Source: Pseudovirgaria hyperparasitica
Taxonomy: Eukaryota
NCBI GenBank assembly: GCA_010093815.1
Contig: ML996575.1
Length of the DNA: 64,000 nucleotides
Reading direction: 5' to 3' (one strand)
The position numbers and the translations under genes are program-made. Shown in pieces: positions 7,318-53,939 of the stretch. Numbering within the stretch: the stretch's first letter is position 1; the number at the start of each line of letters is the position of its first letter. The notes under the pieces are model-generated. The model searched no databases and was not told the DNA's origin. It was given only the letters and a program-made list of their open reading frames with translations.

Positions 7318-10300
7318 ATGGATGTGGACTTGGACGCGGATGTAGACGGGGACCATGACTATCATGGCGATCCCTTCACCACCGACGCCATTTTCTCCGA
7401 AAGCAGGGCAGCCGGCGAGCAAGATCTACTAAGTCGTCGCATTGCAAAGCTTATTGCCTCTCGCACTGCGCCTGCTGAGCATTATCTTCGCCCACGGCCG
7501 AATGATATCATTCCCGACTGTCCGGGCTCTTCTGCTCTATACCAGCACCAGCCTCGTCGTCGCTCGCAAATTCATCCCTCTTGGCGGCCCCGATTCACAG
7601 ACGACACCGAGTCTTTGACCAGCTCATTTCGCCCGTCTTCAAGCATCATCACAAACAGTCTATCCAGGTCCCGGTCTGTTAGCCAGGCCTTGGCTTCACA
7701 GTCTAGACCAGGCATACGCTGTGATGAGAGCCCGCATTTCAAGTCGACGCTGAGCCTGCGCACCACACAACAACAATTATCATTACTCCACCCAGACCAG
7801 CCGAGACTTGATAGTTCCACGGTACGTTAAAACTAAAGCCCGACCCCCGCTCTATTCTCCTTGTGGTAATCCTGAATGCACCTCCCTATCCTTGGCTTCC
7901 ACCCTCTATCCCCCTTCGCCTGCACTTCAACGCCCTACCAGTCCATGCAGTTCAACTACTGCAGCGCCTCCACCTGCCTCCACAGTACTGCCTTGCCGTC
8001 TGTAACACTAGGCTTAGTCTGGTATTGTGACCCACTGGGGCTTCATCCTACTCTAGCTCTCGCTCTAGCATCGCCATCTCCATCTTCTCTCACCACAGTT
8101 ATTTGGGCTCTACCCCTAGGCGTCAATTTGACAGCTACTGACACTGGCGATCCCCCCATCAATCGCGATGCGCTGTTGTGTAGTAATCACATGTTGAGCC
8201 ATCGTATCCGCTTCTACCAATAACTTGTACCGTTCCTGGACTTCTGCATCATTATACCAATAACGTCGGCGGTTTGACTTTAGCTCTCACTAACCCTCCT
8301 CACAGACCATGCTCCCAACTATGGTTGAGAGAAAATCACCCATTGGCCGTGGCCGTGACGTAAATACTTCCGGTGTGGACCTTTCTCCTCGTGGTATTCA
8401 TATACCCTCTAGGACCAGGTAACTTTCATTCCTTTTTGACAATCTTCACACTTTTCGCAATGGCTGACGATCAACAACATAGCTCCAGGCCGTACAGGCC
8501 TCACCGCCGCATCGCATCTCCATCGCGCCAGCGACGGGATCTGAGTCCATCCGTGGGAGGTTCTACAGAAGATCGTGCCGTGGCGAGCTCTGCTGCTTCT
8601 ATGGCTTCGTACGACTCACCACCTTCCTCAGTCGAGCCTGGTGCCCTCTATGACAGGGGGCCCTCTGAAGCTCATGAGAAGCTTCACCCTCTCACCGAGG
8701 ACAACCCAGATTCGTTCGACCTGCTGTCTCCTGATGCGAACTTGAGAAGCAGCAAGTCGTACTCGCTCGAGGAACGATCCGAGTTGATGTTCTCGAGAAA
8801 GCATCTGCAAGCCATCTTCCAGGATCCCCATCAACTTCACCGGTTCACGGCTTTTCTCACCTCCTCACGTCCAAAGTCGATCCCGTTGCTGATATATTAT
8901 CTGGATGCCCTCAAGGCACTGCGCGCCATCAATTATGCCAATGCTGTTGCAGAAGCTCTTGATCCCATAGAGAATCTTGCCTTTACCGAGCATGCCGCCC
9001 GTCCAACGATGAATGGTGTGTTGGAGGAGAAGGCATCAGCTGCTTTTGACGTACTAGTCTGTGAAGACTTGCCTGCTTTCATTACTCATGTATATATCAA
9101 GATCGCGAGCCGAGCCATCACCCAGAGAGTTACTGGTAATCTACCAAAAGGCTCACAAGAGGCCGAGGGTCTGGCGGAAGTGTTCTGCTTCACTGACGTC
9201 TCGCGCCCTGACAATCCCATCATCTTTGCTTCTGAGGGTACGTACTCGATCCGGCATGAGATAAGATGCTCAGACACATGCTAACATGCCTAGAATTCCA
9301 TCGCACCACGCAGTATGGGGTAAATTATGCAATTGGTCGCAACTGCCGCTTCTTGCAAGGTCCTTGCACCAACCGCGACAGTATTCGTCGAGTTCGCACC
9401 GCTGTTGAGACCGGACAGGAAATCAGCGAGGTTTTCCTAAATTACCGCCGGGATGGCTCTCCGTTCATGAACATGCTCATGATGGCGCCACTGTACGATA
9501 GTCGTGGTACTCTCCGGTATTTCATAGGCGCCCAAATCGACATCAGTGGCCTAGTCAAGGAATGTGTCGACCTCGAAGCGCTCCAGAAGATTGTCGCCAC
9601 GAAAGACAAAGACGCTCCACCCCAGGATCCAGAGCCGACGAAAGACGAGTTCCAGGAGCTGGCTGAAATGCTCAACTATGCAGAGCTCGATTGTGTCCGC
9701 AAGCACGGCGGTCGAATGCACCGTGATGACGAGTATGAATCAGAGAATGAGACTCGCCATCGCATCGGTCGCGATAGACGCCCTCGCATGCATCTCCGCG
9801 ACTCTGCCGACTCCGCCGACGAAAGGACGAAGGCGGAGTCTATTCCCAAAACTATCAATGGTCGTCTCCAAGGCGTATACCAGCACTACCTTCTCCTCCG
9901 TCCTGCTCCCTCACTCCGCATCCTCTTCACCTCGCCTTCTCTACGCATCCCCGGCATTCTACAATCCCCATTCGTCGATCGGATAGGCGGCAGCGCCCGC
10001 GTGCGCGCCGGTCTCACCGCAGCCCTATCCGAGGGCCAAGGCGTAACCGCGAAAGTGAAATGGCTAACCAACCCACGAAACTCAGACGAAGAGGGCCGCA
10101 CGCGCTGGATCCACGCGACGCCCTTGCTCGACGCGAACGGCAAAGTAGGCGTGTGGATGGTGCTGCTTGTCGACGAAGCAACCGAGCAATACGTCCAGCG
10201 CAGAAAGTTCCGCGTCGCCCCGCCCGTCGAGCAATTCTCCTCCCAGTCCTATCACCACGAGGACGTGGAAACCACAGCGCGCCCGAGCACACGGAACGTG

Positions 10301-10849
10301 CCGGAGACAGATTCGATCGTCATGCGCAGCGTGCCGACAAGCGGCCGCCACAGCACCGATGACGAGGGCCCGCATGGCAAGTTCCTGGAAGACGACGAGT
10401 ATGACAGCGCGCCGGGCCCGCAAGTCCGGAACGTTGCGCGCAAACAGCCACGCGTCATTATGAATAGCATATCCGGGGGTCCAGGACCAGGTTCGTACCA
10501 GCAGCGGCAGCAGCAACACCACTACCAGAACGGCCTCAACTCACACCCGACCCCATCCCGTCCATCATCAAGGAACTCACGCCAAGACCGTTCTCGAGCC
10601 AATTCCTCACTCCCTCCACCGTCGCCCGCCGTGAACCACGTCCGCATCTCGAGCCCGGCCATAACGCCGCCGCAATCGCCCAAGGATAAGCGCAACTTTA
10701 TCAAGCTCGGCATGTCTCAGGCCGCGAATATGATTGGTCGACGCAGCAATGGGCAGGCGAATGGGCATGATGCGCGCGATAGTCACGATAGTCACGATGT
10801 CAGTGGGAACGCGATTGGCAATGGGAGTGTCGACAGCGTTGCTTTGTAA
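7318..10849 (+). CDS. RGS-LOV-PAS-like blue-light photoreceptor (BcLOV4-like architecture)
   Basis: LOV signature AEVFCFTDVSRPDNPIIFASE|EFHRTTQYGVNYAIGRNCRFLQGP...NYRRDGSPFMNML...YFIGAQID across intron 9238-9293, with photoactive Cys and Gln intact. A helical RGS-like region precedes it and a PAS-like region (RWIHATPLLDANGKVGVWMVLL) follows. Core 8483-10849 is secure; upstream exons 7318-7821 and 8306-8418 are inferred; ATG 8460 or 8309 are alternative starts. Confidence 0.85.
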
Positions 10850-16138: not shown

Positions 16139-16603
16139 TTAGACCCGGCACTGTAGTAATAGAAATCGTTTAAACAAGTACTATCAAGTGTAACCTTAGA
16201 TTATGCTTCTAGTGAATGATATATACACCACGTAGTATATCTAACATCACCTAGTATAGACTTAGCTATAGTACTATCTAGTAGAACTTCTAATTACTAT
16301 CTTATTAAAATTCTATCTTTCTTTATATATAACTTAGAGCTCTATGAAATTATATATACTATAGAATAGAGTAAGTCTCTATCTATATCTAATTCTTATA
16401 TAATATAGATAGTAAAAGGCTTTCTTTAGACTACATCTAGTAGAGTCTTAGAAAGTTATCTTCTACTTCTTATCTATATATTCTAATAGAGAATCTAAGA
16501 GATTATAACTCTATTAAGATAAAACTCTATTATAAAGTCTATCTTCTATAACTTTTAAGAGCTATTTACTACTTAATATCTCTTATATATTTTATAATAC
16601 TAG

Positions 16604-16841
16604 TGTAAAGAGTAAAGACGTAGGATAGTAGTCTAACAGTTTATAGAGAGACATAGGAATGTATTTATAGGGTAGTCTCACTCTCATACGAGGTTAATTC
16701 CTAACGAGCAGGAGTCGGTTTATACGGTCCACTTATATAGTAACCTCGCTTAACTTAGCTAACTCGACCCAGCTCTAGCCACTACGTGGCTACATGGATT
16801 AGAATAGTCTATATAGGTCCGTTATAGTTCCCGTCCTAATA
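16604..16841 (-). repeat. 3' LTR of element A
   Basis: Starts TGTAAAG, ends CCTAATA (RIP of ...AACA); matches 24412-24649. Confidence 0.95.
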
Positions 16842-17320
16842 ATATCCTTCTTCTTTTTATGCTTCGCCCCGAAGCACTTAAGTATATATAATCCTAAGTC
16901 TCTATAATCTATCGTGTACCTATATATCCGTGACTAAGTTTCTATAACGTTATAACTATCCTTAATATAGGTGAACTCGAGATTCTAGTTTACTTTTACT
17001 AGTTTATACACGCGCTTATTCCTTACTTCGTGGCTACTACCTAGGATATATAATTACTACTCTAGTCGAGTATATATTTAGCTTCGCTCGCCTTTGATTT
17101 TATTCTCTAGTATATCTACCTCGCTCTTAAGGTAAGTCGTTAATTCATATACTATCTTCCCTAGTTTAGGTTTAGAAGGGTCTATTATAGTCCATTCTTA
17201 TTAGAACCGGTCCTATATGACCTATTCGCGTTATTACGGTTACTAATTTAGCTTTATTAATTACCGTTAAGGGTGGACGAATATTCCTTCCTTAGATCTT
17301 TAGCTAACGTGTGTATATAG

Positions 17321-18636
17321 ATATCTAATACTAGTCCTATCTCTAAGCCTATCTCCTCCTCTCGTAAGACTCGCTCTAAAGGTATTACCTCCTCCCCGGC
17401 TACGCCGGCTAAGAAGCCTACCTATCGCGGTAGTACGAAGGCGCGCTCTAAGTTAGAGAAGAGAGTAGCTAGGGCTACTACTACTACTTCTGCCTCTACT
17501 ACTAATGTAGCTACTAGTCGCTCTAATCTAGGTGATTCTAGTACTAAATTTATGGATGAAGCGGTCGTAAGTTCTCCCCTCGCTCTAACGCGCACGCCGT
17601 CTACTCTATCTCCTCTAGAGGATGAAGAAGATCTCGTTATAGATAATAATTATAAGCCCTCGCGCTTACCCACGCCGCCGCCTCGCCGCTCTTCCTTCCG
17701 GTCTAATATAGACCGATTTAGTTACTCTAGGTCCTTTTAGAACCTTAATATCCGCTCTAAACCCTAGCCTACTAATAATAAGGCCTGGGTCGCCGAGGAT
17801 ACTAAACGTGGTCGCGGTTTACGCTATAGGAAAACGGCGAACTACGGTTCGATATACTATAAGTATATTAAGGGCTATATAGCCGGCTCTAAATATCTCT
17901 TTCGCTCTAACTCTAGTATTAGCTGCTACTCTACTAACCGCGACGGGCCTATACACCCTATCTTTACTCTACCTACCCGCTACTACCGCTATACCGTGAC
18001 TAGTAAGACTTATCTATAGGTGAGTATAATGGGCTATCTTAGTCTAGTGTAATCTAAAGTTATCCGCGCTAATACATTCTTAGGTTCCTATGCGTATATA
18101 AGATATATATAACGACCTTCGCGTCCGTGAGACCCTCGGGGGTCCTTATAGCTACCTATCTACTATATAGAGGGAGTTTAGGGAGCGCTATAAGCTCTTT
18201 CTAGAGGTTATTAAAGTGTAAGTTACGAACACGTTAATTATTTTTAACATCTATTAATATTTCTAGCCGCCGCGAGATCCCTAGCGCCTAGGCTACCTAT
18301 TCTAGGGAGTCTATTCTAGCTATAGAGGCCGTAGAGAGGATTCGCTCTATCCCCCTCTATCCGTCTTACGCTACTAACGGATCTTATAAGAGGTCTACTA
18401 TTTCTCCCTCTAAGTCGCCTCGTAAGAGGGTATATATTCCCTTCTAGATTATTCTAGATCGTATTAGCTAACTTTAGACCTAGTCGCTGCGCTCTAGTGC
18501 TTAAGGCTCTTCCCTCTAGGCTCTAACGGATTAAGTTATTACTCTAGAGGCTAAGGTCGTCGTCCTCCGCCGCTATATCGTGCGGTTAGAGAGAACTATA
18601 CTAGAGGTTAGGACGGATAATAAGATGGAGGAGTAG
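17321..18636 (+). pseudogene. Antisense intron-containing cargo gene of element A, de-RIPs to a Cys-rich protein
   Basis: Frame from ATA(ATG) at 17321, broken in the stretches translated only by TAG/TAA codons explicable by RIP. Introns 18020-18083 (GTGAGT..GCTAAT..TAG) and 18218-18266 (GTAAGT..CTAG) keep the frame. Homologous copy in A2. Confidence 0.7.
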
Positions 18637-19129
18637 CTCTATGGTTCTGGCTCTATGGGTTTAGCTCTGTATATTAGCTCTATGTGTTCTAGATCTACTA
18701 TAGGTGGTGCGCGCCGACTCTATTTACCTGGCTTTTATCCGTTTTAGTTCTTTTTAGACCGTTTAGATACCTATCGGCTAGTTCCTAGTAATTTAATTCT
18801 TAACTTAACGATATTATATATGCGCTCGCTTAGCTTATGACTATCGGTTTCTATATTCTAATTTTCCTTAAGTTACCTAAGTGTGGGCACCGCATATTAA
18901 TTAGTTTATCTCTATGAATTCTATTAGAGCACCCGAACTAGTGGCCTAGTGGTTATTAGTTCGGGTACTCTAACCTTTTATGTTTCGTGTTAAGAGTTTA
19001 ATTCTATGGTGGGGTACCTTTTTAGGTTCTTAGTCCCATATTTTTCTCGTGTATAATGGTCCATGTTGGTCCATTCTAGACTCTTCTATGTTATTCTATT
19101 ATGGTATGTCGCGTCGCGTTCCTAAAATG

Positions 19130-22100
19130 GTTATTTACGCTTTCTTCGCGTCTGGTAACCGTGCGACGCTTAAATTATGGGGCTACTATATAGAGTTTTC
19201 CTAGTGCGCGTCTAGATTTCCTGGTTTAGTACTTCGTTCTCTACGGTATCCTTCTTCTTTTTACGACGACCGCGACGTCGCTATACTTACATTAATAATA
19301 CGCTATTCTACACCTTTTACTTATACGCAGCCATTACCGAACTTAAGATATATACTACTGGTTTCTAGGTGTCCTCGTCCTCGGTGTAGTCCTTCTAACG
19401 GATTCTATATTTCTAAATACCGTCTTTATCGATCCCATGTTCGACAATATAGTCCACTTCGAACACGTCTAGTCTATCTTAGGGTATAATAGAGTATAAC
19501 TATACGTTCGTGCGGCCATATACGTTAGGTTAAAATCTTTTAAGTAGTAAGACGTGGAACACGTTATGGATTCTTATGTTACTTCCTAAGTCGAGCTCGT
19601 AGGCTCTTATACCGATACGACGTTTGATTCGGAAGGGACCAGCCATTTTATAATCGAGCTTCTTATTTACTCGCGACGTTCGTATATTACGGATATTAAG
19701 AAGGACCTCGTCGCCCTCCTCGTACGTCTAATCCTTAGCTAACCTATTATAGTACTTCGTATACGAGTCGTTTACTTATTAGATTATAGCGCGATAGTTG
19801 CGTGCGGTTTCGAAGATTTTAATCGCTAATTCCTAAGCGTGGACGTTCACGTCTGTTATTTAATTAAATTAGACCGTCTAAGGCTTAAAACCTATCCTTG
19901 GACTGCGTCCGAGGTTCGCCTAGAAAGGTATAATATCTATCGTACTATAACGACTATTATTATATACGAACTCTACTATACTTAGTAGGGAGGCCTAGTC
20001 GTTCTACTTGAAATTATAGAATGCGCGTAGATAGGCCTCGAGCGTCTAGTTCTATCGCTCTGTCTAGCTATCCGTCTAAGGATAAAATACTATAGATATA
20101 TTTCTATTTATACTTACTATTTCGTAGAATAACGTCTAGAATTTAGACGTGAAGGTACTTCCTCGGTCCGTAACGATCCTTTTTAGTATACTATGGACCT
20201 TAATAATCTCGTTCTAGAACACCTACGCTAGTTCTTTAGATGTAATCATCTTCTATACCGGGATATACCTAGATATCTTTATAAGTCTATCCACGATAAT
20301 AAGAATAGAATTATAACTTATTCTAAGTATCTCGCTTAGAGGTAAGTTAACTATAAAGTCTATAGTAACATCTTCCTATATAAAGAGGGGGACTAAAAGA
20401 GGCTGTAAATTCCTATATAGCTTATATCTAGGGGCCTTCGTTCTTTGATAAATCGGATAAGTAGCTATCTATTCTTTAACGTACTTAGGTATATCTTCCT
20501 AAAAATAGTACTAACGAATTAAGCTTAGGGTACGTACATACCTAAAGTATCCTACTAGGTTAGCGTTATGGTATCGGCTAACTACGTTAAATCGCGCGTT
20601 ATCTATCGGCATATAGCACTTTCTATTATAGTAAAGTAAGCCGTCCACGAAGGTCCACTTATAGTCTACTTTAGTCTATAATAACCTATCTTACTATATT
20701 TTACGCAACTTTAAAACTGTCGGGTCTATCTTCTATAGATCCATAATTAACTAGGCGAGGTTAATTAGATATTTACGCTGGGTATTATCGCCCTTCCCGA
20801 TAGCGCTAATAAACGGCCTACTAGGGACTTTAGTACCGCGTCTTTGGTTACCGGCTTCGGTCTTAGAGATTTAATTACCGGTATTAATGTTAGCATCTCG
20901 CTAATCACCTAATAACTTAAAATCTAACCTCGTCCTTAAGAGTTGGGCCTATAGCTACTCTAGGACCCTATAGCTACTATAATTCTAGGCGCCTTCTTTA
21001 TAGTTAGGTCTTCTTAATATTCTATTAGCTAGGTTTATACTTCTAGGTCGATGGTAGATTATAAAGTAAAAGTTCGTAAGCTACTTAGCCTATTAAACCT
21101 ATTGACGGTTTAAAACCGTCGTGCTTATAAACCCCTTTAAGTTATAGTAATTAGTTAGTAACTCGACGTCATGTATGGTACCTTTAAGATAATATCGCTA
21201 CTATTTAAACGACTCTACTATTACTAGTAGCTCTTAGTTATAGATAGTGTATCTAGTCTTAATATCGACTATTTTACGCGAGAAGAACGTAACTAGATAC
21301 TATTAGACCTTTTTAGACTTAGTTAGTCTAGGCTAGAAGAGAATACCTAAGATTATAAATTCTAACGCGTCGGTTTTAACGCGGATAGGTTTAGTCGGGT
21401 TAAAGTGCACTAGTAATAGGGTAGTTATAAATGCCTCTTTGATTTTCTCGAAGGAGGCCCTTTCGCCTTCTAATAATTCTATAGGCTACGATTTAATATT
21501 ATACTATTTCTGTCTACCGCGGACCGTAATAGACGAATCTATAGTAGTAGTACGCGCGTTAAGCGGTGCTACTAGCCGGGAGAAGTGCTTAACGAATTTT
21601 TAGTAGTAATTAGCGAATCTAATAAAGACACGTATATCTCGAACCGATTTTAGTTTAGGCCAGTCCACGATAGTAGCGACCCTATCCCTTTCTATGGTTA
21701 TACCTTGATTAGTAATAACGAAGCTAAGGAAGTTAACGTGGTCCTAGTGGAACTTATATTTAGATAGCTTAATATATAGCTTATGTTTTTCTAGCCTATC
21801 TAGGACTACGCGTATGTGCTAGATGTGTTCTTCTTCGTTATCCGAGAAGATAAGGATATTATCAAGGTATATAATGCACGTCGTGTTAAGTAGGCCTACC
21901 AGCGTGTTATTAATATACGCTTAGAAGGTCCCTAGCGCGTTAGTTAGTCTAAAAGGGACCACTATGTACTTAAAGTGTCCATAACGGGTCCTAAACGCCG
22001 TTTTCTACTTATCGCCCTTCTTAATACGTAGGCGGTAGTAGGCGTCGTATAGATCGAGCTTAGTAAAGATCTTCGCGCGCCCTAGTCTATTAATAGACTT

Positions 22101-24370
22101 AGAGATAAGAGGTAGTAGGTAACGATTCTTTCGTGTAATATTATTTAGGCTATAGTAGTCGATATATAGACGGAGACTCCTATTCTTCTTCTTTATAAAG
22201 AGGATTAGGGCTCCGGCTAGGGATATACTAGGTCTAATCTATCCTCGCGTAAGGTTCTTTTCAATGTATTCTCGGAGGACCTATAGCTTAGGTTCTAATA
22301 GAGGGTAGATAGGTCCGTGTGGGGGTTATTAACTATTCTCGAGGTTAATAGTAAGATTAGTAGATTGGTGTTAAGGTAATTCGGACGAGTCGATCGCTAA
22401 CGCGATATATTAGTACATTTTATACTAATATAGTAGGTTTTCATCTACTCTAATACTAAGCTCTCTATTTTAAGTAAGTAAGAGGACGTAGATAGTAGAG
22501 ATTGCCTTTTCGTAGTCCTTCTGGAATTATTCGTCGTCGACTAGCTATACTAGGTTCCATTATAGTGGGTGCATATACCAGCCAGCTATTTTCTAGATAA
22601 AGTCTAGTTTCGGGTTATGTTTTTTAAGCCACGGCATACCGAGGATCATGTTAAAGGGGCTATCTACCACGATGAAGGTTAAGTAGTAGGGTTTCCACTT
22701 CCCCCCGCTATCCTAGATACCGTATTTAATGGTATAGGTACCCTACGATTTAATAGGACCATTAATACTATGGAAGGTAGTATCTATTAGTGCTTAAATA
22801 TCGATATTAAGTTCTCGTGCTCATTAAGTCGATATAACGTTAGTGGCTAAACCGCTATTAAGTATTACGGTCTAATGTTATCCACGGGGGACCTTAATGG
22901 GCCTAGCCTATAGTTCGATATACTAGTTAGCTAGTTATCCCTCTATTTTAGTTACGTCTATAAGTCGCGAGGGTTTCTCGTAGGTAGTTAGTTTTTTATA
23001 TTATATACCGGGTAGTTAGGCGCGATATGTCCTAGCTACTAGCACTTATAGCATGTAACTAACTTAGTATCTATATTAGTATTCGGTGGTTTCCTAGAGC
23101 GGTACTCGGGTACTATATGGCCTATCCTACTATAAGTATAGTAGATGACTTTAGGTCGTTTATATGAGTCGTTTCTCGCGTCTCGATATATCGACTAGTG
23201 GAAAGATCCGCGGTATAGGTCTCGTCTTCTCGAGTTCATAGAGTGGTAGCGCCCACGAGGTATTCCGCGCGATCTATTACTAAACCGGTCCTCTTTAGAC
23301 GATTTCGCATCGGGTTAGATTAATAGGGATAGTCGTGCGCCTGTATAACGTTAGTTATTCATTATACGCTAATGTCGTTCTACGAGATTCGCGAGTACCT
23401 AAAGGTTAGTAGAGATAGACGTTATAAGGTTAATACGTTCCTTTACGCTCGGGTTAAGGGACCTTTTAAAGTCGTCGCATTATTAAACCATGCGATCTTC
23501 CTTAGCTTCTCTCTAGAGAGGTCGGAGGTATTTAAGGAGTTATAACGGGGATTATCTTTCTTACTATTAAGTCTTAAAGATATAGCTCTAAGTCTATTCG
23601 CGTCGCTTAGCTCTATCGCTAAAGTATTAAAGGAGGAATTCGGTGAACGTGTCCTAGTTATACGCATCCTTAGGGTGTTCGATTCGATATACCATCTAAC
23701 GTTTAGATAGCGTTAGGTCTAGGTAGTTCTATACGAACCTAATCTTATTACTATCGTTCGTGAATAGGTGGAAGAATCGGCTATACTAGTAAGCCTATTC
23801 GTGAAAGCTCCTCCTGGTTTTACCGTCGAAGTAAGGTGGTTTCTTAGGCCGAGGCAACTAGGATAGTAATAGACTTAGTTAGACTATTTCGGCTTAAGTT
23901 GGTCCATATTAGTATAGGTTAGTTACTACTAGTACTAAAGCGCGTAGTGCGGCTTTAAGTCTAGCGGTTTATCCTCGCGCTTCGTCGAGTTCGCGAAGTT
24001 ACTATTTAAGCTACGCCTAACGCTACCTTTCCGCGTGTAGCCTAGTATACACGTCGTCGTAAGGCGTGGTTAACGTTAGTTAGTTCTAACGAATTAGTTC
24101 GTTAACGTTAATAGGGTCTAGTCTTATAGTAAGGATGGGTCTAGTATAGTATGAACTAGACCGCGATGGAGTATAATGGACTCCTTCCTTATTATCTAGG
24201 TAGTCTTCTACGGTTACACGGAATGCCGTACTAGTTATTAGTATGATAGCTTATAGGGTATACTTATTAGTGGAGGTGGTCGTAGGGAGACTATTCTCCT
24301 CGTTTAGGTTTGGGGAGAGTCTCTTATAGAAGGTCGTGCCACGGGTATTATAGCGTGTAGTAGGAGCCAT
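19130..24370 (-). pseudogene. gag-pol of element A (gag with 2 CCHC; PR-RT-RH-IN-chromodomain)
   Basis: ATG GCT CCT at 24370. De-RIP knuckles CYTCGRMGHIAPEC and CYKCQQLGHIAPNC. Chromodomain DVFEVDxIVEH...YRIRWKxYTEDEDTWEP. 3' end approximate. Confidence 0.9.
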
Positions 24371-24411
24371 CTCTATAAGCTGCCGTCGTGCTATATAGAG
24401 AGGAATTAAAA

Positions 24412-24649
24412 TATAAAGAGTGAAGACATAGGATAGTAGTCTAATAGTTCATAGAGAGACATAGGAATATATTTATAGGGTAGTCTCACTCTTATACGAG
24501 GTTGATTCCTAACGAGTAGGAGTCGGTTTATACGGTCTACTTATATAGTGACCTCGCTTAACTTAGCTGACTCGACCTAGCTCTGGCCACTACGTGGCTA
24601 CATGGATTAGAATAGTCTATATAGGTCCGTTATGGTTCCCGTCCTAATA
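24412..24649 (-). repeat. 5' LTR of element A
   Basis: Direct repeat of 16604-16841. Confidence 0.95.
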
Positions 24650-24654
24650 ACTAG

Positions 24655-25597
24655 GCTTATTATATCTCTATTCTAATAAGAATATATCTTATATACTATC
24701 TAGAAGAGCTCTTATAACCCCTCTCTTATTCTATAACTATTTATTATTCTATACTCTTAAACTTTAAAAAGTTCTCTTTTACTTCTTATCTAATAATTAT
24801 AGTAAAGACTTTAATTAATTAGAATCTAATATAGATAAGAGTCTTCTATTAAGAGTATATAGTAGAGTCGAAAGAAGTTCTCTTATATTCTATATCTTCT
24901 CTATATACTAACTTAAGAAGCTTATTCTATTTTTATCTATATAAAAAGATATCTTAAATACTAGATAGTAGAGCTTTAAGAAGTTCTTTCTTATTCTATA
25001 TCTCTTCTATATATTATCTAGTAAAGCTCTAAGAAGTTCTTTCTTACTTAATATCTCTTATAAATACTATAGTTTCTAATATAATAAGATTCCAATTAAA
25101 CTAGTATTTATTTTTAATTATATATAGTAAAGTAATAAGAAGGTCTATCTTTCTATATATCTTCTCTATATCTTAGATAATTTACCTTTATATACTTTCT
25201 ATTAACTAAGAATCTATCTTAGTCTCTATCTAGTAGAGCTTAGAGAAGTTCTCTTTTATTCTATATTACTTCTATATATTATAATAGTAAGCTTAATAGA
25301 ACTCTATATAGATAAATATCTATCTAGAATTCTATCTAGAATAGTTTTAGAAAGTTTATCTTAAGTCTCAATCTACTATATCTTATATAAGACTAGATAT
25401 AGTATAATTTTATCTAGAGTAGAATTAATCTTAAAATCTATCTAGTAAAATATAAGAAAGTTCTTCTCTAATATATATCTCTTCTAACTATTATAGTTAT
25501 AGACTTAATAGAATTCTATTTAGAGTAGACTCTACTTAAAGGTCTATCTAGTAGCCTCTAAAGAAGTTCTATCTTACTTTATCTATCTCTTATATTC
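24655..25597. repeat. RIP-mutated ~106-bp satellite (also at ~16200-16603 and 52862-53185)
   Basis: Recurrent TTCTA(C/T)TT..GAG...CTATCTAGTAG...GAAGTTCT...CTTA motif. Period 106 measured at 52889, 52995 and 53101. Confidence 0.8.
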
Positions 25598-26299
25598 TAT
25601 TACGGGAATACAACGTATACATAGATATAAGAGTATTTATAGAATATAGTAAGTTTAATAAGGGAGGAAGCTAGAGTCTACTCGGCTTCCTTAAGATAAG
25701 GGATAGAGTATACTATTAAAAAGGGGCTTACTTAGCTTCATTAAGTAAGAAGGGAGTAGTAGCACGGGCGTAGTATACTAGCGTTAAGTATACCTAGAGT
25801 CTACCCTTAATATTACCCCCTCTCTCCGCTCGTTTATCGCTAGAGCCCGCCTAGTTATAGACTACTATAGTGAGCTATCGCCACGTGTGTCCCTTTTATA
25901 AATGGCTATGTTCCTAGTATAGTAGTCGACGACGAACTCACAAGTATCTCTCCTAGGTATTATAAGTTCTCTTTAAACGCACGACTTCTTATTAGTTCTC
26001 TTTTATGATAGGACGGGTCTATATAATACTCTTAATTAATTCTTTAATAGCTAAGCCTAATAATTAATACCTATAGAGGCCCATGAACGTAAGAAAAGGT
26101 TAAATAGTCGAATATTAGTAATGGGGGAAGCGCGCCGAGTAGAATGACCAAGGAAAACGCCCTCCTTAAATATATAATAAAGCCATATAATCGAGCCAGG
26201 GACACATACATATAGGGCTATAGGAGCGGCCTTCCACATATACCTCCCCGGCCTATAGAACTACTACCCTTAGTAGTATAGTAACTGTATAAGAAACCG

Positions 26300-30019: not shown

Positions 30020-33000
30020 CTCTTCCCTCCTTAAAAAAAACTTCTATCCTCTAGAAGGAGATATCGATTCTAGGGAAACGTAAATATTCTTCTCTATTAA
30101 AGTCTTACGGAGTAGAAATTACTACTTCCACCTAGGTTCGTGTGGCGTCGTCGAGGTATTCCGTGAGTTATTTATGATAGTTTTCCTTATCGCTACTCTC
30201 CTTATTTTCCTCGGTAATTCTTCTGATTAGTGGTCGTGAGGGCTCGTCGTGACTCTCGTTACTTATATTTCTTATAAAATATTTCTTTAACCTATGGCTA
30301 GGAAACGTCCCTCTAAGCATGGCTCTATTAAGCTTCGCGAGCTTATAAGTATAATTAAACACGGACTAGATTCTATATGGCCCCCTCTAATACTACCTTA
30401 GCTTCCGCCCTATATCCTTCTATCGCTACGAGTCGTATAGGAGGATAATCGTATTAACTAGTAACGAATCTTAATAAAGGTAATGGTCGTTATTCCATGC
30501 CTCTCTCGATTCCTTACGCGTTCGTGTCGCGTGGGCATGGGCCTCCTTAAGATCCTCGGATCTTCTCTTAAGTTATCTAGCTTAAAGAGCGAGTAAGTCG
30601 GATGTTAATCGCACCTCGTCCTAAGGGAGTATTTAGAGCGACTCGAATTCGACTTTAATAGGCATGATTAGTTTATAGCCGAGCACGAGGTATACGGTAC
30701 TATACCCTATACTAGCACGTGTCGTTATTCTATCTACCTAGACGACCGCATGGAGATAGCCGGGCTAGTTCTTAAATCCGCTATTAGTTATCTTCGCGAG
30801 AGCATTAGCGAGTAGTATAAAACTTCTCTCGATAATCCTATTTACTCGGGGATTATATATAGACATAACCTTCTAATAAATTCTATAGAGTTAGAGGAGC
30901 TCCTCTATGGCACCTATATTTTCTCTACTACTATTATAGGTGATTTTAGGAATGATTCCGTATCTATAGATCACGTTCTTAAAGAGAAACTTTACGATAA
31001 CTATAGACGTGGCCGCCGTACATGCCTCCGCCTTAGTCTATCCGCTTAGCTATTCTCGTATAGATACCACTTTACTATACCCTATAGAAGATAGTAGTAT
31101 CGTTATATCTAAGTATATTCTTTACTAAAGAATAGGCGTTATAACGTGGTAGAGCCCTTTATTAAGACCTCCGAGGAGTTTACTTCGTCGTTAATATTTA
31201 TTATAGGTTTTCACGTGCTATCGCACGTCTCTATATATACCTACCTACTAATACTTATCCTTAATCCTTCCGAGGGTCCCTTCGCTACCTCTATAATCTA
31301 TCTCGTTATAAGTAGCGGTAGTTATACGCGCCCTAGTATTCGGATTCTTAATTACTCGTGTATATTGGCGATACCTATCTTCTCTCCGCTAGAGTATTTA
31401 GTTATATACGAGGAACTTTAGGCAGTTAGTTATAAAGGCCTTATACGCTCGGTTAGTTAGGTCGGTTAGCCTCTCGAGTATAGTAAGGTACTTTATAATT
31501 CTCTACTATTTATCGCTATATTCATCTATTAAGGGAGACTTAATGGCGGTATAGTCGAGTATCTCTATTATATAATCTCTCCCGCTAACGGGCTTAATTA
31601 ACGACGTCTCTAGTACGTCTATATATAGAGCTATATCCACGAACTTATCTAGGTTAAAGGTAGAGACGTCTGGTGGTTCTTCTCCTTTATATATCCGTGA
31701 GATACCGTCGGCGACTATATTACGCTTCCTAGGTACGTATCTAACTATAAAGTTCTATAGCTAAATCTACGCGAGCCACCTAGTAACGAGCGCCCCTAGT
31801 AAGTTAGTTACAGTATGGTTAATTTAAGCGACTAGAGTATTCGCGTCTATTTCTATAATAAAGTACATGCTATAGAGGTATTACTAGAACTTCTATAACG
31901 CGTAGAGGAGGGCTCGGTACTCCAGCTTCACGGTATCGTAGTTTCTCTTAGCTTTTAACTATATTCCTCTATTATACCGCGATAGCTAACGTTTACGATC
32001 CTCGTTCTCCTATATTAATATAGCTCCCTATCTAATATTACTAGAGTCTACTACTAGAATTATATCTCCCGTACCTATCCTATACTATAACGTTATTAGT
32101 GCGGGAGTAGTAGTTAGAGCTATCTTTAGCGCGTCCATCGAGGTCTACTCCTTAGCTATCTACTACTAGGCCGATTCATTCTTTAATAGTATAAATAGCG
32201 GCGATGCGATAATAGCGTACCCGGGGATCTATATCCGGAAATATATATAAACGCCAAGGAAGGCTTATACATTTATCGTGTTTTTATAGGGTTTCTAGTC
32301 CCTAATAGTAGTAACCTTTTTATTACTCGGTCGCCTCCCTTTAATATTATAGACGTATCCTATAACGTTAGCGGCTTTAACATACTACTAAGTCTTCTTA
32401 CTACTTAGGGCGTATCTAGCGCGCTCTATATCCGCGAGAACCTTATCCACGTTAATTAAATGTTCTAGGATATACCTATAAATTCCAGGTAGGGCCTCCT
32501 TAGAGTTATATTTCGTCGTGGGTCCTTTAATGCCTAAGTTATCTAGGAATAGTAGAGCTCTCTCCGGGATATATTCTTATATAATAGTTAATATAATTCT
32601 AACGAACTAAGCTACTAAATTAGTGGCCCCTTAAGGTAATATTATCCCGTATAGTAATCCTAGGGGCGTTATAAACCCCGTTAAGTCTCGGTAATACTCT
32701 ACTAATAGAATCTAATTATATCCTAAGAAGAAGTTAGTAAACGTTAAGACGGCTATCCCCGTAAAGTGCTCCGAGAACTCTTTATACGAGGGCGGCGTGG
32801 CCGTATCACGAATAGTGACTCAGTTAATTTCTATCGCCGAATTAATTAACCTATAATCTCGTTCCTTATTGGCTTCCTTCTTCTTTTCCACGAGAAAATA
32901 GGCGTTTCGATAAGGACTACTATAGGGCTTAAGCCTTCTACTATTAAGACGCTCTTTTAGGATCGTGAGTACCTTCCTATAAAGGGCTCTAGAAATATTA

Positions 33001-36580: not shown

Positions 36581-37469
36581 AAGTAGTATACTCGTATAGC
36601 CGTGTTTATGAATAACAGCTATAGTAGCACTAAATAGGTTATATTTATCGTTTTTGAACTCTTCTTTACTACTTTATCTAGCCCTATTTTATATTCTATT
36701 CCCCTAAGACATTTTCGAGTCGCGCTATCACCCGTGTTAGCATGCGTATACTTTTTACGGCTACTTTTAAGAGGCTAGCCCCTAGCGACTCCGGACTCCC
36801 TGTTTTCCGGACTCGTGGCTTCGATCTAGTAAGTCTAGACTACCTTATTAGATACACTATATACTTCCCCTAAGCTAGTTTCGGAGTCCTAATCTCCCCC
36901 TATAAGTTTGTAGTCCGGGTACGACCTCTAAAATTATGGTAAGCTATTACCACGTGTGTCTCTTTTATAAATGGCTGTGTTCCTAGTATAGTAGTCGACG
37001 ACGAACTCACAAGTATCTCTCCTAGGTATTATAAGTTCTCTTTAAACGCACGACTTCTTATTAGTTCTCTTTTATGATAGGACGGGTCTATATAATACTC
37101 TTAATTAATTCTTTAATAGCTAAGCCTAATAATTAATACCCATAGAGGCCCATGAATGTAAGGAAAGGTCGAATGGTCGAATATTAGTAATGGGGAAAGC
37201 GCGCCGAGTAGAATGACCAAGGAAAACGCCCTCCTTAAATATACAATGAAGCCATGTAATCGAGCTAGGGATACATACATGTGGGGCTGCAGGAGCGGCC
37301 TTCCACACTACTTATAAGTAAGCGTTATCCGGCTTATTCCCGCCGGCTTCCTAGAAAACCCTTAATAAAGCTACTCTTCTATACCTAGTTATTATAGTAG
37401 TAATTATTATTAGCTTGTAGTAATACTTATTATTATATATAACGCTCCCTAATATAGGTCTTAGCGACT

Positions 37470-38748: not shown

Positions 38749-41700
38749 TATTAGGGCTAACACTAGGATAGACTTAACTAGACTACTATAGTCTAGTACG
38801 GTCCGTGATAGGTGGACCTAGGTTAAGCTAGCTAGAATAAGCGAGACCACTATATAAGTAGACCGTATATACTTAATTCCTACTCTTTAGAAATTAACCT
38901 TATTAGAAGAGTAGACTACCCTTTTAAATATATTCCCGAATTCTCCTATAATCTATTAGACTACTATTCTACGTCTATAATCCTTATATTTTAATTCCTC
39001 TTTATATAGCACGACGGTAGTTTATAGAAATAGCTCTAACTACTTATTATAACACTTATAGTACCGCCTCTTATAGTAGACCTTCTCCTAACCTAAATAA
39101 GGAGAATAGTCTACCTATAACTACCCCTACTAATAACTATACCTTATAGACTATCGCACTAATAACTCGCACGATATTCCGTATAATTATAGAAGATATT
39201 ATAGAATATAAGGATAGAGTCTATTATACTCTATCTCGGTCTAGTTTAAACTATACTAGACCTAACCTTAATATAAGGCTAGACCTTATTAATGTTAATA
39301 AGTTAATCTATTAGAATCGCCTAACGTTAACTATACCTTATAATAATATATATACTAGACTACACGAAGAGAGATAATAATAGGTTTAACTCGAGTAATA
39401 ACTACGCGAACTCGACGAAGCTCGAGGACGTACTATAAGACTTAAAGCTATATTATACGCTTTAGTTCTAGTAACGACTAATCTATATTTATATAGACCT
39501 ATACTAACTAAAACGATCTATCCTAGTCTACTACTATCCTAATTACCCCGACCTAAGAAACCACCTTACTTTAATAGTAAAAGTAGAAAGAGTTTCCACG
39601 TATAGGCTTACTAATATAGCCGATTCTTCTATCTATTCACGAACGATAGTAATAAAATTAGATTCGTCTAGAACTACCTTAACCCGACGCCTTTAGAACG
39701 TTAGATAGTATACTAAATTAAATATCCTAAGGATACCTATAACTAGGACACGTTCACTAAATTTCTCCTCTAATATTTTAGTAATAGGGCTAAACGACGC
39801 GACTAGGCCTAGGGCTATATCTTCGAGACTTAATAATAAGATAATTAGTTACTATTATAACTTCTTAAATACCTTCGGCCCCTCTAGAGAGAAGCCGAAG
39901 AAGATTATATAATTTAATAGTATAATAACTTTAAACGGTCCCTCGCCCTAAATATAAAGGACCGTCTCGATCTTATAATAATAATCTCTATAGACCTCTA
40001 AGCTCTTATAAACCTTACGGAGCGATACTAGTATATAATAAATAATTAACGCCGCGCTAGTGCACGACTATCCCTAATAATCTAATCTAATATAAAATCG
40101 TCTAACTAAAACCGATTTAGTAATAGATCTCGTGGGACGTTATAAGGCTACTACTACGCCTTAAATTTAAAACTACGCGGATTATATTATAGATCTCCCT
40201 ACTAATTAATATATCGAGATATAAGGACTAACTTATATAAATAACCTAAAGTTACTTACTATACCTATAGTAGAATAGACTATATAGTACCTAAGTACCG
40301 TTTAGGGAAGCTACTAAGTACTAATATAACTAACTAACTAGTTATATACTATAAGTACTAGTAGCTAGGATATATCATGCCTAACTACCTAGTATAGAAT
40401 ATAAAAAACTAATAGCCTATAAGAAACCCTCGCGACTTATAGGCGCGACTATAATAGAGAGGTAATCCGCTAAATAGTATATTAAACTATAGGCTAGATC
40501 TATCGAGGTCCCTCGTGGATAATATTAGACTATAATACTTAATAGTAGGTCGGCTACTAATATTATATCGACCTAATGAGCATAAGAACTTAATACTAAT
40601 ATCTAAGCTCTAATAGATACTATATTCTATAGTATCGACGGTCCTATTAAGTTATATAGTATCTATACTATTAAATATAGTATCTAGGATAGTAGAGGGA
40701 AATAGAAACTCTACTACTTAACCTTTATTATAGTAGATAGTCCCTTTAATATAATTCTAGGTATACCGTAGCTTAAGAAATATAATCTAAAACTAGACTT
40801 TCTTAAGAAGATAGCTAGCTAGTATATAAACCTACCTTAATAGGAACTAGTATAGCTTATCGACGACGAATAATTCTAGAAAGATTATAAGAAGGCGATC
40901 TCTACTATCTACGTACTCTTACTTATATAAAATAGCGAGCTTAGTATTAAAGTAGATAAAAACCTACTATATTAGTATAAAATATACTAATATATTATAT
41001 TAGTAATCGATTCCTCCGAACTACCTTAATACTAATCTACTAACCTTACTATTAATCTTAAAGACGGCTAGTAACCTCTATATAGATCTATCTACCCTCT
41101 TTTAGAACCTAAGTTATAAGCCCTTTAAGAATATATCGAAAAGAACCTTACGCGAGAATAGATTAGGCCTAGTATATCCCTAGCTAGAGCTCTAATCCTC
41201 TTTATAAAGAAGAAGGATAGGAGCCTCTATCTATATATTAACTACCGTAGCCTAAATAATATTATACGAAAGAATTATTATCTACTACCTCTTATCTCCG
41301 AGTCTATTAATAGACTAGAACGTATAAAGATCTTTACTAAGCTTAATCTACGTAATACCTACTATTACCTTTATATTAAGGAAGGCGACGAATAGAAAAC
41401 GGCTTTTAGAACCCGTTATAGATACTTTAAGTATACCGTAGTCCCTTTTAGACTAACTAACGCGCTAGGTACCTTCTAAGCGTATATTAATAACACGCTA
41501 GTAGGCCTACTCGACACGACATATATCGTATATCTAGATAATATCCTTATCTTCTTAGATAATAAGGAGGAGTATATCTAGCACGTACGTGTAGTCCTAG
41601 ATAGGCTAGAAAAGTATAAGCTATATATTAAGCTATCTAAATACGAGTTCTATTAGAACTATATTAACTTTCTTAGCTTCGTTATTACTAATTAAGGTAT

Positions 41701-44700
41701 AACTATAGAGAGAGATAGAGTTACTACTATTATAGACTAGCCTAAACTAAAATCCGTTCGAGATATACGTGTCTTTATTAGCTTTGCTAACTACTACTAA
41801 AAATTTATTAAACACTTCTTCCGTTTAGCCGTACTACTTAATATACGTACTACTACTACTACTAACTCGTCTATTACGGTCCGTAGTAGATAGAAATAGC
41901 GTAATATTAAATTATAACCTATTAAATTAACTAAGGTTAAAAGAATATCCTTTAAGAAGATTAAAGAAGCATTTATAACCGCTCTATTACTAGTATACTT
42001 CGATCTAACTAAACCTATTTATATCGAAACTAATATATTAGAATTTATAATCTCGGGTATACTCTTCTAGCCTAGACTAATAGAGTCTAAAAAGGTCTAA
42101 TAGTATCTAGTTACGTTCTTCTCGCGTAAGATAGCTAACGTTAAGACTAGATATACTATTTATAACTAAGAGCTACTAGTAATAGTAGAGTCGTTTAAGT
42201 AGTAGTAATATTATCTTAAAGGTACTATATATAACGTTAAGTTACTAACTAATTACTATAACTTAAAGGGGTTTATAAGTATAATAGTTTTAAATCATTA
42301 ATAGGTTTAATAGACTAAGTAGCTTATAAATTTCTACTTTATAATCTACTATTAATCTAGAAGTATAAATCTAGCTAATAGAATATTAAGAAGACCTAAC
42401 TATAAAGAAGGCGCCTAGAATTATAGTAGCTATAGGGTTCTAGAGTAGCTATAGGCCTAACTCTTAAGGACGAGGTTAGATAATAAGTTATCTAATAATT
42501 AGCGAGATACTAATACTAATACTAGTAATCGAATTTATAAGACTAAAGCTAGTAACTAAAGACGCGGTACTAAAGTCCCTAGCGAGCTATTTATCGGCGC
42601 TATTAGGGAGGGCGATAGTACCTAGTATATATATTAAGTAGACCTCGCCTAGTTAATCGCGGATCTATAAAAGATAGACCCAATAGTTTTAAAGTTATAT
42701 AAAATATAGTAAGATAGGTTATTATAGACCGAAGTAGACTATAAGTAGACCTTTATAGATAGCTTACTCTACTATAATAGAAAGTACTATATACCGACGG
42801 GTAATATATAATTTACCGTAGTTAGCCGATACTATAACGCTAACCTAGTAGGATATTTCGGGTATATACGCACCCTAAGCTCGATTTATTAGTACTATTT
42901 TTAGGAAGATATACCTAAGTACGTCGAAGAATAGATAGCTACTTATCTAATTTATTAAAGAATAAAGGTACCTAGGCATAAGGTATATAGGAACTTATAG
43001 CCTCTACTAGTCCCCCTCTTTATATAGAAAGATATTACTATAGATTTTATAGTTAACTTACCTCTAAGCGAGATACTTAGAATAAGTTATAATTTAATTC
43101 TTATTATTATAGATAGACTTATAAAGATATCTAGGTACGCCCCTATATAGAAGACGATTATATTAAAAGAACTAGTATAAGTATTCTAGAATAAGATTAT
43201 TAAGGTCTATAGTATACTAAAAAGAATCGTTATAGACCGAGGGAGTATATTCACGTCTAAATTCTAGACGTTATTCTATGAAATGGCCGGTATAAATAGA
43301 AATATATTAATAGTATTCTATCTATAAATAGATAGTTAGATAGAGCGATAGAACTAAACGCTTAAGGCCTACCTTCGTATATTCTATAATTTTAAATAAG
43401 ATAACTAGGCCTCTCTACTAAGTATAGTAGAATTCGCGTATAATAATAGTCGTTATAGTATAATAGGTGTTACGCCCTTCTAGGTGAACCTAGAATATAG
43501 TCTAAGGATAGGTTTCGAACCTTATACGGTCTAGTTTAACTAAACGATAGATGTTAACGTCTATACGTAGGAACTAGTAATTAAAATCTTTAAAACCACA
43601 CGTAACTATTACGTAATAATCTAGTAAGTAAATAAGTTATATATAAAGTACTATAATAGATTAGTTAAAGATTAAGCGTATAAGGAGGGAGACGAAGTCC
43701 TTCTTAATATCTATAATATATAAATATCGCGAGTAAATAAAAAGCTTAATTATAAAATAGCTAGTCCCTTCCGAATTAAACGTTATATTAGTATAAGAGT
43801 CTATAAGCTTAACCTAGGAAACGATATAAAAGTCTATAACGTATTCTATATCTTATTACTTAAAAGGTTTTAATCTAATATATATAAACGTACGAACGTG
43901 TAATTATACTCTATTATACCCTAAGATAGACTAGACGTATATAAAGTAGACTATATTATCGAATATAGGCTCGACGAGAACGGTATCTAAAAGTATTAAA
44001 TTCGTTAGAAGAACTATACCGAGGATAAGAATACCTAGGAACCTATAGTATATATCTTAAGTACCGTGATAGCTATATATAAATAGAGGTTATAGAATAA
44101 CACGTTACTACTATAAACCTAGCGCTATTAGGGCTATTATAAAAAGAAGAAGGATACTATAGAGAATAACGTATTAAATTACGAATCCTAAACGTATACT
44201 AGGAAAACTCTATAAGGTAGCCCTATAATTTAAGCGATGCACGGTTACTAAACGTAAAGAAAATATAAATAACCGTTATAGGCACGCGACGCGATATATT
44301 ATAATAGAATAATATAGAGAAGTCTAGAATAGACTAATATAGACTATTATATATAAGAAGAATATAGGACTAAGAAACTAAAAAGGTACCCTACTACGGA
44401 ATTAAACTCGTAATATATAATATAAAAGGTTAGAGTATCTAAACTAATAACTACTAGGCCACTAGTTTAGGTACTCTAATATAATTTAGAGAGATAAACT
44501 AATTTATATATGATGCCTATACTTAAGTAACTTAAAGGAAATTAGAACCTAAAATTTAATAGTTGTAGAATAAATAAGAACGTATATAATATTATTAAGT
44601 TAAGAATTAAATTACTAGAAAACTAGTAGATAGATATCTAAATAGTCTAAAAAGGACTAAAACGGATAGAAACCAGGTAGATAGAGCTAATATATACTAT

Positions 44701-52700: not shown

Positions 52701-53939
52701 AGTTTAATAAGGGAGGAAGCTAGAGTCTACTCGGCTTCCTTAAGATAAGGAATAGAGTATACTATTAAAAAGGGGCTTACTTAGCTTTATTAAGCGAGGA
52801 GGGAGTAGTAGCGTAGGCGTAGTACGCCAGCGTTAAGTATACCTAGGGTCTACCCTTAATATATCCTATAGAATTAGACTATATAGAGTTCTACTTAGAG
52901 TGGTATCTACTTATATATCTATCTACTATACTTTATAGAAGTTCTTTCTTACTTTATATATCTCTTATATAATAAAGAATTAAGGTATATATAGTTCTAC
53001 TTCGAGTTATATCTACTTAAACGGCCATCTAGTAGAAGATTACGAGGTTCATTCTTATTTTATCGATCTTTTATATAGTATAGGATTAAGCTATATACAG
53101 TTCTACTTCAAGTAGTATCTACTTAAATAGCTATCTAGTAGAAGATTAAAAGGTTCTTTCTTATTCTATATCTTCTCTATGAACTATGATAGTAAGCTTG
53201 TACTTTATGAAGCATACAGGTTATAGTAGTGATTCAAGCAAGTTAGACACGGTCTACGAAAACTTACATGTAGACAGATGGCCAATGGGTGCAGCAACCT
53301 CGATATCAATGGTTCATACACGGCTTGCTTGCTGGGCCTCTGGAAAAGGTAGTAGCTGTTCGATGACATGGAGAAGCTCAAGGTCCCTAAACGCATCAAT
53401 AGGTGAAAGCAAGAAAGCCGGCGTCCTATACGGGGGGTAGGCGACAAAGGCACAGTCTAGAGAGAGCCTGGAATCGAGAAATCAGAGTCTGGAATGCAAG
53501 CAGAGGAGCAGAAATGTGGTAGTGGCAGACGCCTCTAAGTACATACAAGGGCACAATACAGAGATTAAGAGGAAGTCAAAGGGAGGGAAAGTAGAAGTAT
53601 AGATGGAGTGGCGGAGAGGATGAATACGCACGATGAAGATCGAGGAGTAGCACTGGAAGTCAATGGTGTAATCATATAAGATAGGATAGCGTGTGTACGT
53701 TGTGAAGTGGGAAGGAGTTTCAACCGTGCGAAGAGGATGGTGCAATGACCAGGAGGCAGTCCCATGACAGGGAAGAGCGCTATAATAGCATACGTACCTT
53801 CACTTAGCTTATGCCTCAAGTCTACTACTCATACTATAAAGAACCGTCGAATACTTATGATGTACCGTAGCTATGTAATATAGTATACCTAGTTGGATGC
53901 ATATGCTATGATATGCTATACCTTATTAACCTTCCGCGC

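Follow-up and report, generated by a model that had tools for sequence, protein, structure and literature searches.

The DNA analysed here is a 64,000-nt stretch of contig ML996575.1 of Pseudovirgaria hyperparasitica, to which we refer as the window. Between GC-rich flanks (~50-55% GC) it contains an AT-rich block of 38 kb (16 to 54 kb), in which two inverted copies of a Ty3/Gypsy retrotransposon of the chromovirus type are located, element A and its copy A2. Identity between them is 78.4% over 8029 nt, and the window contains no further copy. Our subject is the module of ~2.4 kb between pol and the 3' long terminal repeat (LTR) of element A, which carries a plus-strand gene model, antisense to gag-pol.

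Element A reads on the minus strand and is bounded by direct repeats, the 5' LTR at 24414-24650 and the 3' LTR at 16606-16842 (237 nt), which are 94% alike. The LTR pair of A2 (38749-38988 and 46523-46762) is 93% alike, and the direct repeats measure 237-240 nt overall. A gag-pol region degraded by repeat-induced point mutation (RIP) occupies 19264-24413 on the minus strand, with reverse transcriptase (RT), RNase H, integrase, SH3 and the remnant of a chromodomain. When stops were read as X, a Pfam scan of 16600-24659 matched RVT_1 (1.5e-22), RT_RNaseH_2, RT_RNaseH, Integrase_H2C2 and SH3_Tf2-1, all in a single minus-strand frame, and the pol domains end near 19290. The order RT - RNase H - integrase is the one expected of a chromovirus. 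The nearest proteins to pol are chromodomain-bearing Gypsy polyproteins (33-47% identity), and nearly all top homologs contain PF00385. For the chromodomain remnant itself, pairwise alignment with homolog P0009 is weak (E 0.071, within the Pfam Chromo stretch of P0009), and both Trp positions of that protein face stops. A sequence-only reading of this DNA had called the element a chromovirus; this is right, and pol lies on the minus strand with the 3' LTR at the left.

A polypurine tract, ATCCTTCTTCTTTTTA in plus-strand reading, lies beside the 3' LTR (16844-16859, minus strand), and the same 16-nt motif recurs exactly at the end of pol (19248-19263, minus strand). The motifs of A2 (44140-44155 and 46505-46520) are arranged as in A. 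The window thus holds four exact copies, two per element, against 0.01 expected by chance; a match with one mismatch is present inside A2 at 41203-41218. In both elements the motif pair brackets the extra module. Both elements also bear the marks of RIP, with a high TpA/ApT index (1.78-1.82 vs 0.70 in the flanks) and a low (CpA+TpG)/(ApC+GpT) index (0.08-0.31 vs 1.2). C-to-T change between A and A2 amounts to 81% at CpA and 61% at CpG, and the stops in pol fall on columns occupied by Gln (11) and Trp (10) in its homologs.

The gene model comprises an intron in the 5' untranslated region (UTR) and three exons with a total of 1203 nt or 401 codons, all on the plus strand. It starts with a putative promoter and short untranslated first exon (16860-17131), ending in AAG/GTAAGT, and the similarity of A and A2 is continuous from 17097 on. 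The putative 5'UTR intron (intron 0, 17132-17320, 189 nt in both copies) reads GTAAGT...CTAAC...TAG, and its signals are preserved in A2 at 46224-46036. Exon 1 (17321-18019, 233 codons) contains three TAG stops and encodes a basic N-terminus rich in Ser/Thr/Pro, followed by a Tyr/Arg-rich stretch. Intron 1 (18020-18083, 64 nt in both copies) has GTGAGT in A and GTAAGT in A2, a CTAAT branch site and TAG, and sets the frame of exon 2 (18084-18217, 134 nt, 2 stops in 44 codons). Intron 2 (18218-18266; 49 nt, 50 nt in A2) reads GTAAGT...TTAAC...TAG. Exon 3 (18267-18636), with nine TAA/TAG codons including the final TAG, would encode an amphipathic C-terminal helix. In A2 the gene maps through the alignment to 44731-46035 on the minus strand and shares 66% amino-acid identity with that of A. 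Internal stops number 13 in A and 14 in A2; all are TAA or TAG and none is TGA. These results agree with the sequence-only reading, which had proposed a plus-strand frame of about 400 codons with two frame-preserving GT-AG introns, a probable 5'UTR intron at about 17132-17320 and the counterpart in A2 at exactly 46035-44731. A spacer (18637-19247), not assigned to either strand, separates the stop of the antisense gene from the end of pol. Directly after the stop (18637-18697) a GCTCTATG-like motif occurs three or four times, and A2 lacks 37 nt there.

Evidence for a former coding frame

The antisense frame once coded for protein, because several independent signs agree, namely stops, periodicity, indels, transversions, synonymy in exon 3 and splice signals. 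Exon 1 has three stops in 233 codons, compared with a mean of 22.4 in 74,606 six-frame windows of positions 16000-54000. As few as three stops occur in 31 of these windows, every one of them at the antisense-gene locus, and no other 233-codon frame of the 38-kb RIP block is as open as exon 1; even the RT region of pol has five stops. The frame of exon 1 in A2 is among the five regions with five stops or fewer. Counting TGA codons as a further discriminator between frames was given up, since TGA is too rare in the DNA of the block.

Three-base periodicity points in the same direction. In exon 1, chi2 reaches 69.6 in A and 66.9 in A2, while 166 background windows have a median of 12.1 and a maximum of 38.5. 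Exon 3 is periodic with p 0.004 in A and p 0.0004 in A2. No periodicity was found in intron 0, the one intron tested (p 0.3), or in either flank, i.e., the putative promoter region (p 0.22) and the spacer (p 0.93). The indels between A and A2 follow the same division. Within coding sequence they measure 9 nt (in-frame, exon 1) and 3 nt (exon 3), and the only indel in 17321-18636 that is not a multiple of three is a 1-nt one located in intron 2. Elsewhere in the module, in non-coding sequence, indels of 15, 1, 1, 4, 1, 37 and 1 nt occur, the last two in the spacer.

RIP does not make transversions, and these are distributed over codon positions 1/2/3 as 20/18/36 overall, 10/10/19 in exon 1 and 7/8/14 in exon 3. 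In exon 3, the share of changed codons that are synonymous is also highest in the proposed frame (20/61 vs 10/59 and 9/57 in the others). Taken together, these observations make it highly improbable that there was never a gene and that the open frame is a by-product of RIP-biased composition in a long 3' untranslated region. RIP does skew composition, the reverse-complement frame of exon 1 is fairly open as well (9 stops), and homologs are missing, all of which would fit such an origin. However, composition would have to place the exon 1 frame at the extreme of all 74,606 windows and raise its periodicity above every one of the 166 background windows. Note also that the third-position excess of the plus frame corresponds to position 1 of the complementary frame, and that three plus-strand intron patterns join the best frames.

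The splice signals show the same strand preference. GTRAGT occurs four times on the plus strand of the module and is not present on its minus strand, the rate in the block being 0.58 per kb per strand. At three of the four plus-strand sites a full intron pattern begins that connects frames with few stops, and in A2 GTRAGT survives at two of these three. The exon ends read AAG/GT and TAG/GT, and all three introns carry fungal splice signals on the plus strand. The retention of these signals, together with the weak ORF (open reading frame) signal of exons 2 and 3 by stop count, would also suit a unit that acts as RNA only, with a spliced antisense transcript from the 3' end tuning the element via double-stranded RNA and the frame being incidental. 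Regulatory antisense transcripts are discussed for LTR elements in excerpts of a review (PMC7264820). We nevertheless give this explanation very little credence, as the exons show strong periodicity, indels of multiples of three only and a third-position excess of transversions, whereas intron 0 is devoid of periodicity.

Distribution and origin of the module

The sequence-only reading held that the antisense gene moves with the element. To the two of two copies in the window we can add short contigs from one sample, sequenced in the DNA runs X1 and X2 (8576 and 3196 aligned contigs, 80-100% alike). Contig depth is not copy number and contigs drop rare variants; 40 of 165 variant places are listed. 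The contigs of X1 and X2 cover 30 of 30 bins of 16600-19400 and thus the full length of the gene, they differ almost exclusively by transitions, and many are well diverged from A. X3, from a different study that bears the same species label, yielded one 193-nt contig on 18617-18683 with flanks matching the A2 version, and run X4 no contig matching the module. The gene therefore does accompany the element. The introns, which had been predicted to survive retrotransposition, are indeed present in the copies seen, and no contig joint removes an intron, although the first G of intron 2 is A in ~93% of aligned contig depth. One joint that skips 17677-17986 (CC..TA, with 23 nt on one side) was taken to be a repeat artefact rather than an intron.

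For comparison, 80 related chromovirus loci from metagenome contigs (1.33 Mb) were collected, 45 of which have recognisable LTR pairs. In 43 of these 45 the distance from the end of pol to the 3' LTR is 283-565 nt, compared with ~2450 nt here. The two relatives with long gaps (L042 and L061) were rejected as candidates, because they contain nested fragments or no antisense ORF. Given that 43 of 45 related chromoviruses do without such a module, it was acquired by this lineage. As to the manner of acquisition, we infer that an ancestor of both subfamilies took up the module as a piece of genomic DNA. Its introns would then have persisted because, lying antisense to the genomic RNA, they would never be spliced out during retrotransposition.

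Located between the end of pol and the 3' LTR, antisense to gag-pol and present in most copies seen, the gene shares the features of the antisense extra ORFs known as aORF-3R (PMC7264820, cited from excerpts here and below). We therefore favour, with moderate confidence, an accessory gene of aORF-3R type in a high-copy fungal chromovirus, equipped with its own upstream region, a 5'UTR intron and two coding introns and since killed by RIP. As every examined copy is inactivated, no product is expected from this genome now.

An alternative that we consider unlikely is a passenger, i.e., a host gene or gene fragment that was captured once with its introns and upstream region and has since been copied along without benefit to the element. 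Three introns and an upstream region of its own do resemble an ordinary fungal gene, a 16-nt direct repeat brackets the module, 43 of 45 related elements are without it, and it evolves faster than pol. A mere passenger is harder to reconcile with the fact that the sequence was kept, with indels of multiples of three only and a third-position excess, in two subfamilies differing by 22%, and that it is present throughout a very abundant family. None of the protein searches returned a host-gene homolog, though a RIPped query is weak.

Several observations weigh against the accessory gene that we prefer. Its start codon at 17321 is ATA in both copies, probably an ATG changed by RIP from TpG to TpA. 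The synonymous share fails to single out the frame of exon 1, and by stop count exons 2 and 3 are no more open than other frames. Compared with the other proteins of the element, the gene combines strong periodicity and indels of multiples of three only with a transversion rate above that of pol (2-11 vs 0.7-3.3 per 100 nt), close to that of gag and the LTR; a value so well above pol implies weak constraint or, alternatively, old subfamilies. The alignment of the gene rests on two copies, A and A2. No RNA run containing the stretch was found, and hence there is no transcript evidence. Furthermore, protein, metagenome, PDB and Pfam searches revealed no homolog, and the structure prediction that the sequence-only reading had recommended as a check gave AlphaFold2 (AF2) models that were unusable (predicted local distance difference test score, pLDDT, 46 for exon 3 and 36 for exon 1).

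In these homology searches, Pfam returned nothing for the three exons but one sub-threshold DUF match, and a word-index protein search with exon 1 gave no match at E <=0.1. An exhaustive HMMER search against 1.84 billion representatives produced a single match, P0001 (E 5e-6, 28% identity), which was judged spurious: P0001 is a four-fold Tyr-rich repeat protein, and the match is therefore taken as compositional. A metagenome scan with the A/A2 alignment of exon 1 led to 370 pattern matches, none of which was confirmed. PDB profile searches gave 0 matches and 2 chance matches at E 0.07. The sequence-only reading had also suggested a tblastn search for relatives; among the 80 related chromovirus loci it brought none to light (best E 0.55), with raw A, raw A2 and a two-copy reading that prefers C/G as queries. 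In the latter, C or G is taken wherever A and A2 differ.

The predicted product and its Tyr-rich core

According to the C/G-preferring reading, the product was probably basic and ended in a coiled coil. Arg and Lys make up 17.7% and Asp and Glu 8.5% of its residues, Ser, Thr and Pro account for 45% of the first 130 residues, and over the last 69 residues 12 of 20 a/d positions of the heptad are hydrophobic. The sole recurring feature of the AF2 models is a C-terminal helix of low confidence (residues 91-119 of exon 3). We thus picture a protein that is basic and for the most part disordered, in which Ser/Thr/Pro and Arg abound and an amphipathic coiled-coil-like helix forms the C-terminus. Such a protein may have influenced the cycle of the element in trans, as a nuclear or nucleic-acid-directed factor, as has been proposed for GENE23 of Grande and other aORF-3R products.

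A more specific function had been suggested by the sequence-only reading, which regarded the product as Zn-cluster-like, with Cys codons turned into Tyr codons by RIP. The underlying pattern is present: Y179-x2-Y182, C202 and Y221-x2-Y224-x6-Y231 are followed by L, a stop and V-P across the intron. Five motif Tyr are common to A and A2, within a region (residues 171-233) where the density of Tyr is 16%. It is also correct that one of the six motif positions still reads TGC, exclusively at 17924-17926. The identification as Zn2Cys6, on the other hand, is not supported. The Zn2Cys6 pattern is C-x2-C-x6-C-x5-12-C-x2-C-x6-8-C, and the spacing found here differs from it even when every Tyr is counted as Cys. 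Residue 189, six after Y182, offers no ligand (Gly in A, Ser in A2), and the gap from C202 to Y221 is 18 residues long.

The precursors of the Tyr codons point elsewhere, too. RIP acts on CpG as well as CpA here, and Tyr codons (TAY) can therefore also derive from Arg CGY codons, via two steps. At the 19 codons of the antisense gene that encode Tyr in one copy only, the counterpart is Arg (CGY) nine times, Cys once and His never, compared with His 28, Arg 24 and Cys 5 in gag-pol. CGC codons are enriched in the antisense gene (23/400 vs 19/1790 in gag-pol). At codon 220, A has CGC and A2 has TAC; at codon 222, A has TAC, and CGC is found in A2 and in ~77-87% of contig depth. Two Tyr codons beside the motif residues are thus demonstrably former Arg. 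The sole TGC of A is TAC in A2 and in all covering contigs (37 of X1 and 22 of X2), and it may be a half-mutated CGC.

What speaks for hidden Cys residues is that RIP has brought TGY and CAY codons close to saturation and that the C-x2-C of the integrase of element A now reads Y-x2-Y, so that the five shared Tyr could hide Cys. Moreover, among 41 conserved pol columns with Tyr in A, homologs have Cys in 6, His in 9 and Tyr in 21. The raw RIPped reading gave no match to PF00172 at E up to 10; this is weak evidence, because RIP would destroy the signal. The zinc-cluster regulator is thus weakened and not refuted. With the spacing misfit, the Arg precursors and the fate of the single TGC, we rate it as very unlikely, and we advise against using the label as long as no genome-wide consensus brings back Cys. 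That the Tyr-rich core hides a new type of Cys/His metal-binding module is a further possibility. In sum, what the sequence-only reading had observed is confirmed, and its interpretation is supported for the antisense gene and not supported for the zinc cluster. In a species whose RIP acts on CpA plus CpG, Arg, Cys and His alike are turned into Tyr, and this calls for caution against one-way de-RIP readings.

Further features were noted in the window. In the flank, an ORF at 9266-10849 on the plus strand encodes a PAS_9 domain and shares 99% identity with a protein assigned by name to Pseudovirgaria hyperparasitica, a Dothideomycete; its relatives bear names such as PAC domain, white collar or phototropin-like. 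A second and larger LTR element lies between A and A2. Its 300-nt repeats (25866-26165 and 36935-37234) are 96% alike and 11,069 nt apart, RNase H Pfam matches are found near 31700-32150 on the minus strand, and its length suggests additional content there too. Arrays of a ~106-nt tandem unit (9 copies, 62-81% alike) are present at both edges of the inner block (24803-25595 and 52867-53182) and are adjoined by 216-nt repeats (25598-25813 and 52647-52862, 90% alike). Two frames without Pfam match, 30672-31418 (plus strand) and 53224-53922 (minus strand), have five stops or fewer per 233 codons within the RIP block, and the former is antisense to the pol region of the larger LTR element.

Comparison with known antisense genes of LTR elements

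The sequence-only reading took canonical Ty3/Gypsy elements to encode gag and pol only. To set the gene apart from every known Ty3/Gypsy element on these grounds is overstated, since antisense ORFs in the same position have been described for Boty (brtn) and several plant families (PMC7264820, excerpts). In the review, aORF-3R are exemplified by Grande gene23, RIRE2/Wallabi/Gran3, Retand ORF4 and PvRetro13 ORF2 and, among fungi, by Boty of Botrytis and Sclerotinia. According to the same excerpts, none of the products is like known proteins, some are nuclear and their function is unknown; for GENE23 of Grande an own promoter and nuclear localisation have been shown, while a regulatory role is proposed and unproven (PMC7264820). 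The plant aORF-3R and the gene studied here share position, antisense orientation, presence in most copies and the lack of database similarity. The plant cases mostly belong to lineages other than chromoviruses (Tat/Retand), and the likeness concerns layout. The brtn gene of Boty-like elements was reportedly described by Zhao et al. (2011, Virology 417:248).

This antisense gene of Boty-like Ty3/Gypsy elements in Botrytis cinerea and Sclerotinia (PMC8365987, PMC7264820, PMC4227169, PMC5987419, all cited from excerpts) offers a close parallel. In both cases a fungal chromodomain Gypsy element bears, in the gap from pol to the 3' LTR, an antisense extra gene not included in standard genome annotation. 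The differences are the host class, which is Dothideomycete here as judged by the flank, and the fact that the copies here are RIP-dead. Again the likeness concerns layout, and the protein searches returned no brtn sequence. Our full-text literature searches found no fungal case in print other than brtn of Boty. The three antisense introns predicted here are also of note in this context, as the review lists introns of aORF-3R as still to be sought (PMC7264820).

Antisense extra genes of LTR retrotransposons have thus been seen repeatedly, none of them with a known function. A second, apparently independent fungal case adds clear intron signals, bracketing repeats and an acquisition that is datable because relatives do without the module; together these suggest that such modules were gained more than once. 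The case also gives a concrete route to intact, expressible relatives. On a more tentative level, and with more doubt than conviction, one may think of a so far undescribed accessory family of Dothideomycete chromoviruses, unrelated to brtn, that arose by uptake of an intron-bearing antisense piece and whose basic product with its coiled coil was required in trans when the element multiplied into one of the genome's most abundant repeats. If so, it would be a fungal counterpart of the antisense regulators of retroviruses.

The retroviral model for such a comparison is HBZ of the human T-cell leukaemia virus HTLV-1, a complex retrovirus: HBZ is an antisense gene, is spliced and encodes a basic protein with a C-terminal zipper-like helix. 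Here, the element is a fungal retrotransposon and a sequence relationship does not exist. Unlike that of HBZ, the upstream region of the fungal gene is located inside the element beside the LTR and not demonstrably in the LTR; for HTLV, an antisense promoter in the 3' LTR is mentioned in the excerpts of the review (PMC7264820). In spite of these differences, HBZ and the gene predicted here would have the same general design, being read from the opposite strand at the 3' end, spliced, and translated into a basic protein with a zipper-like helix at its C-terminus.

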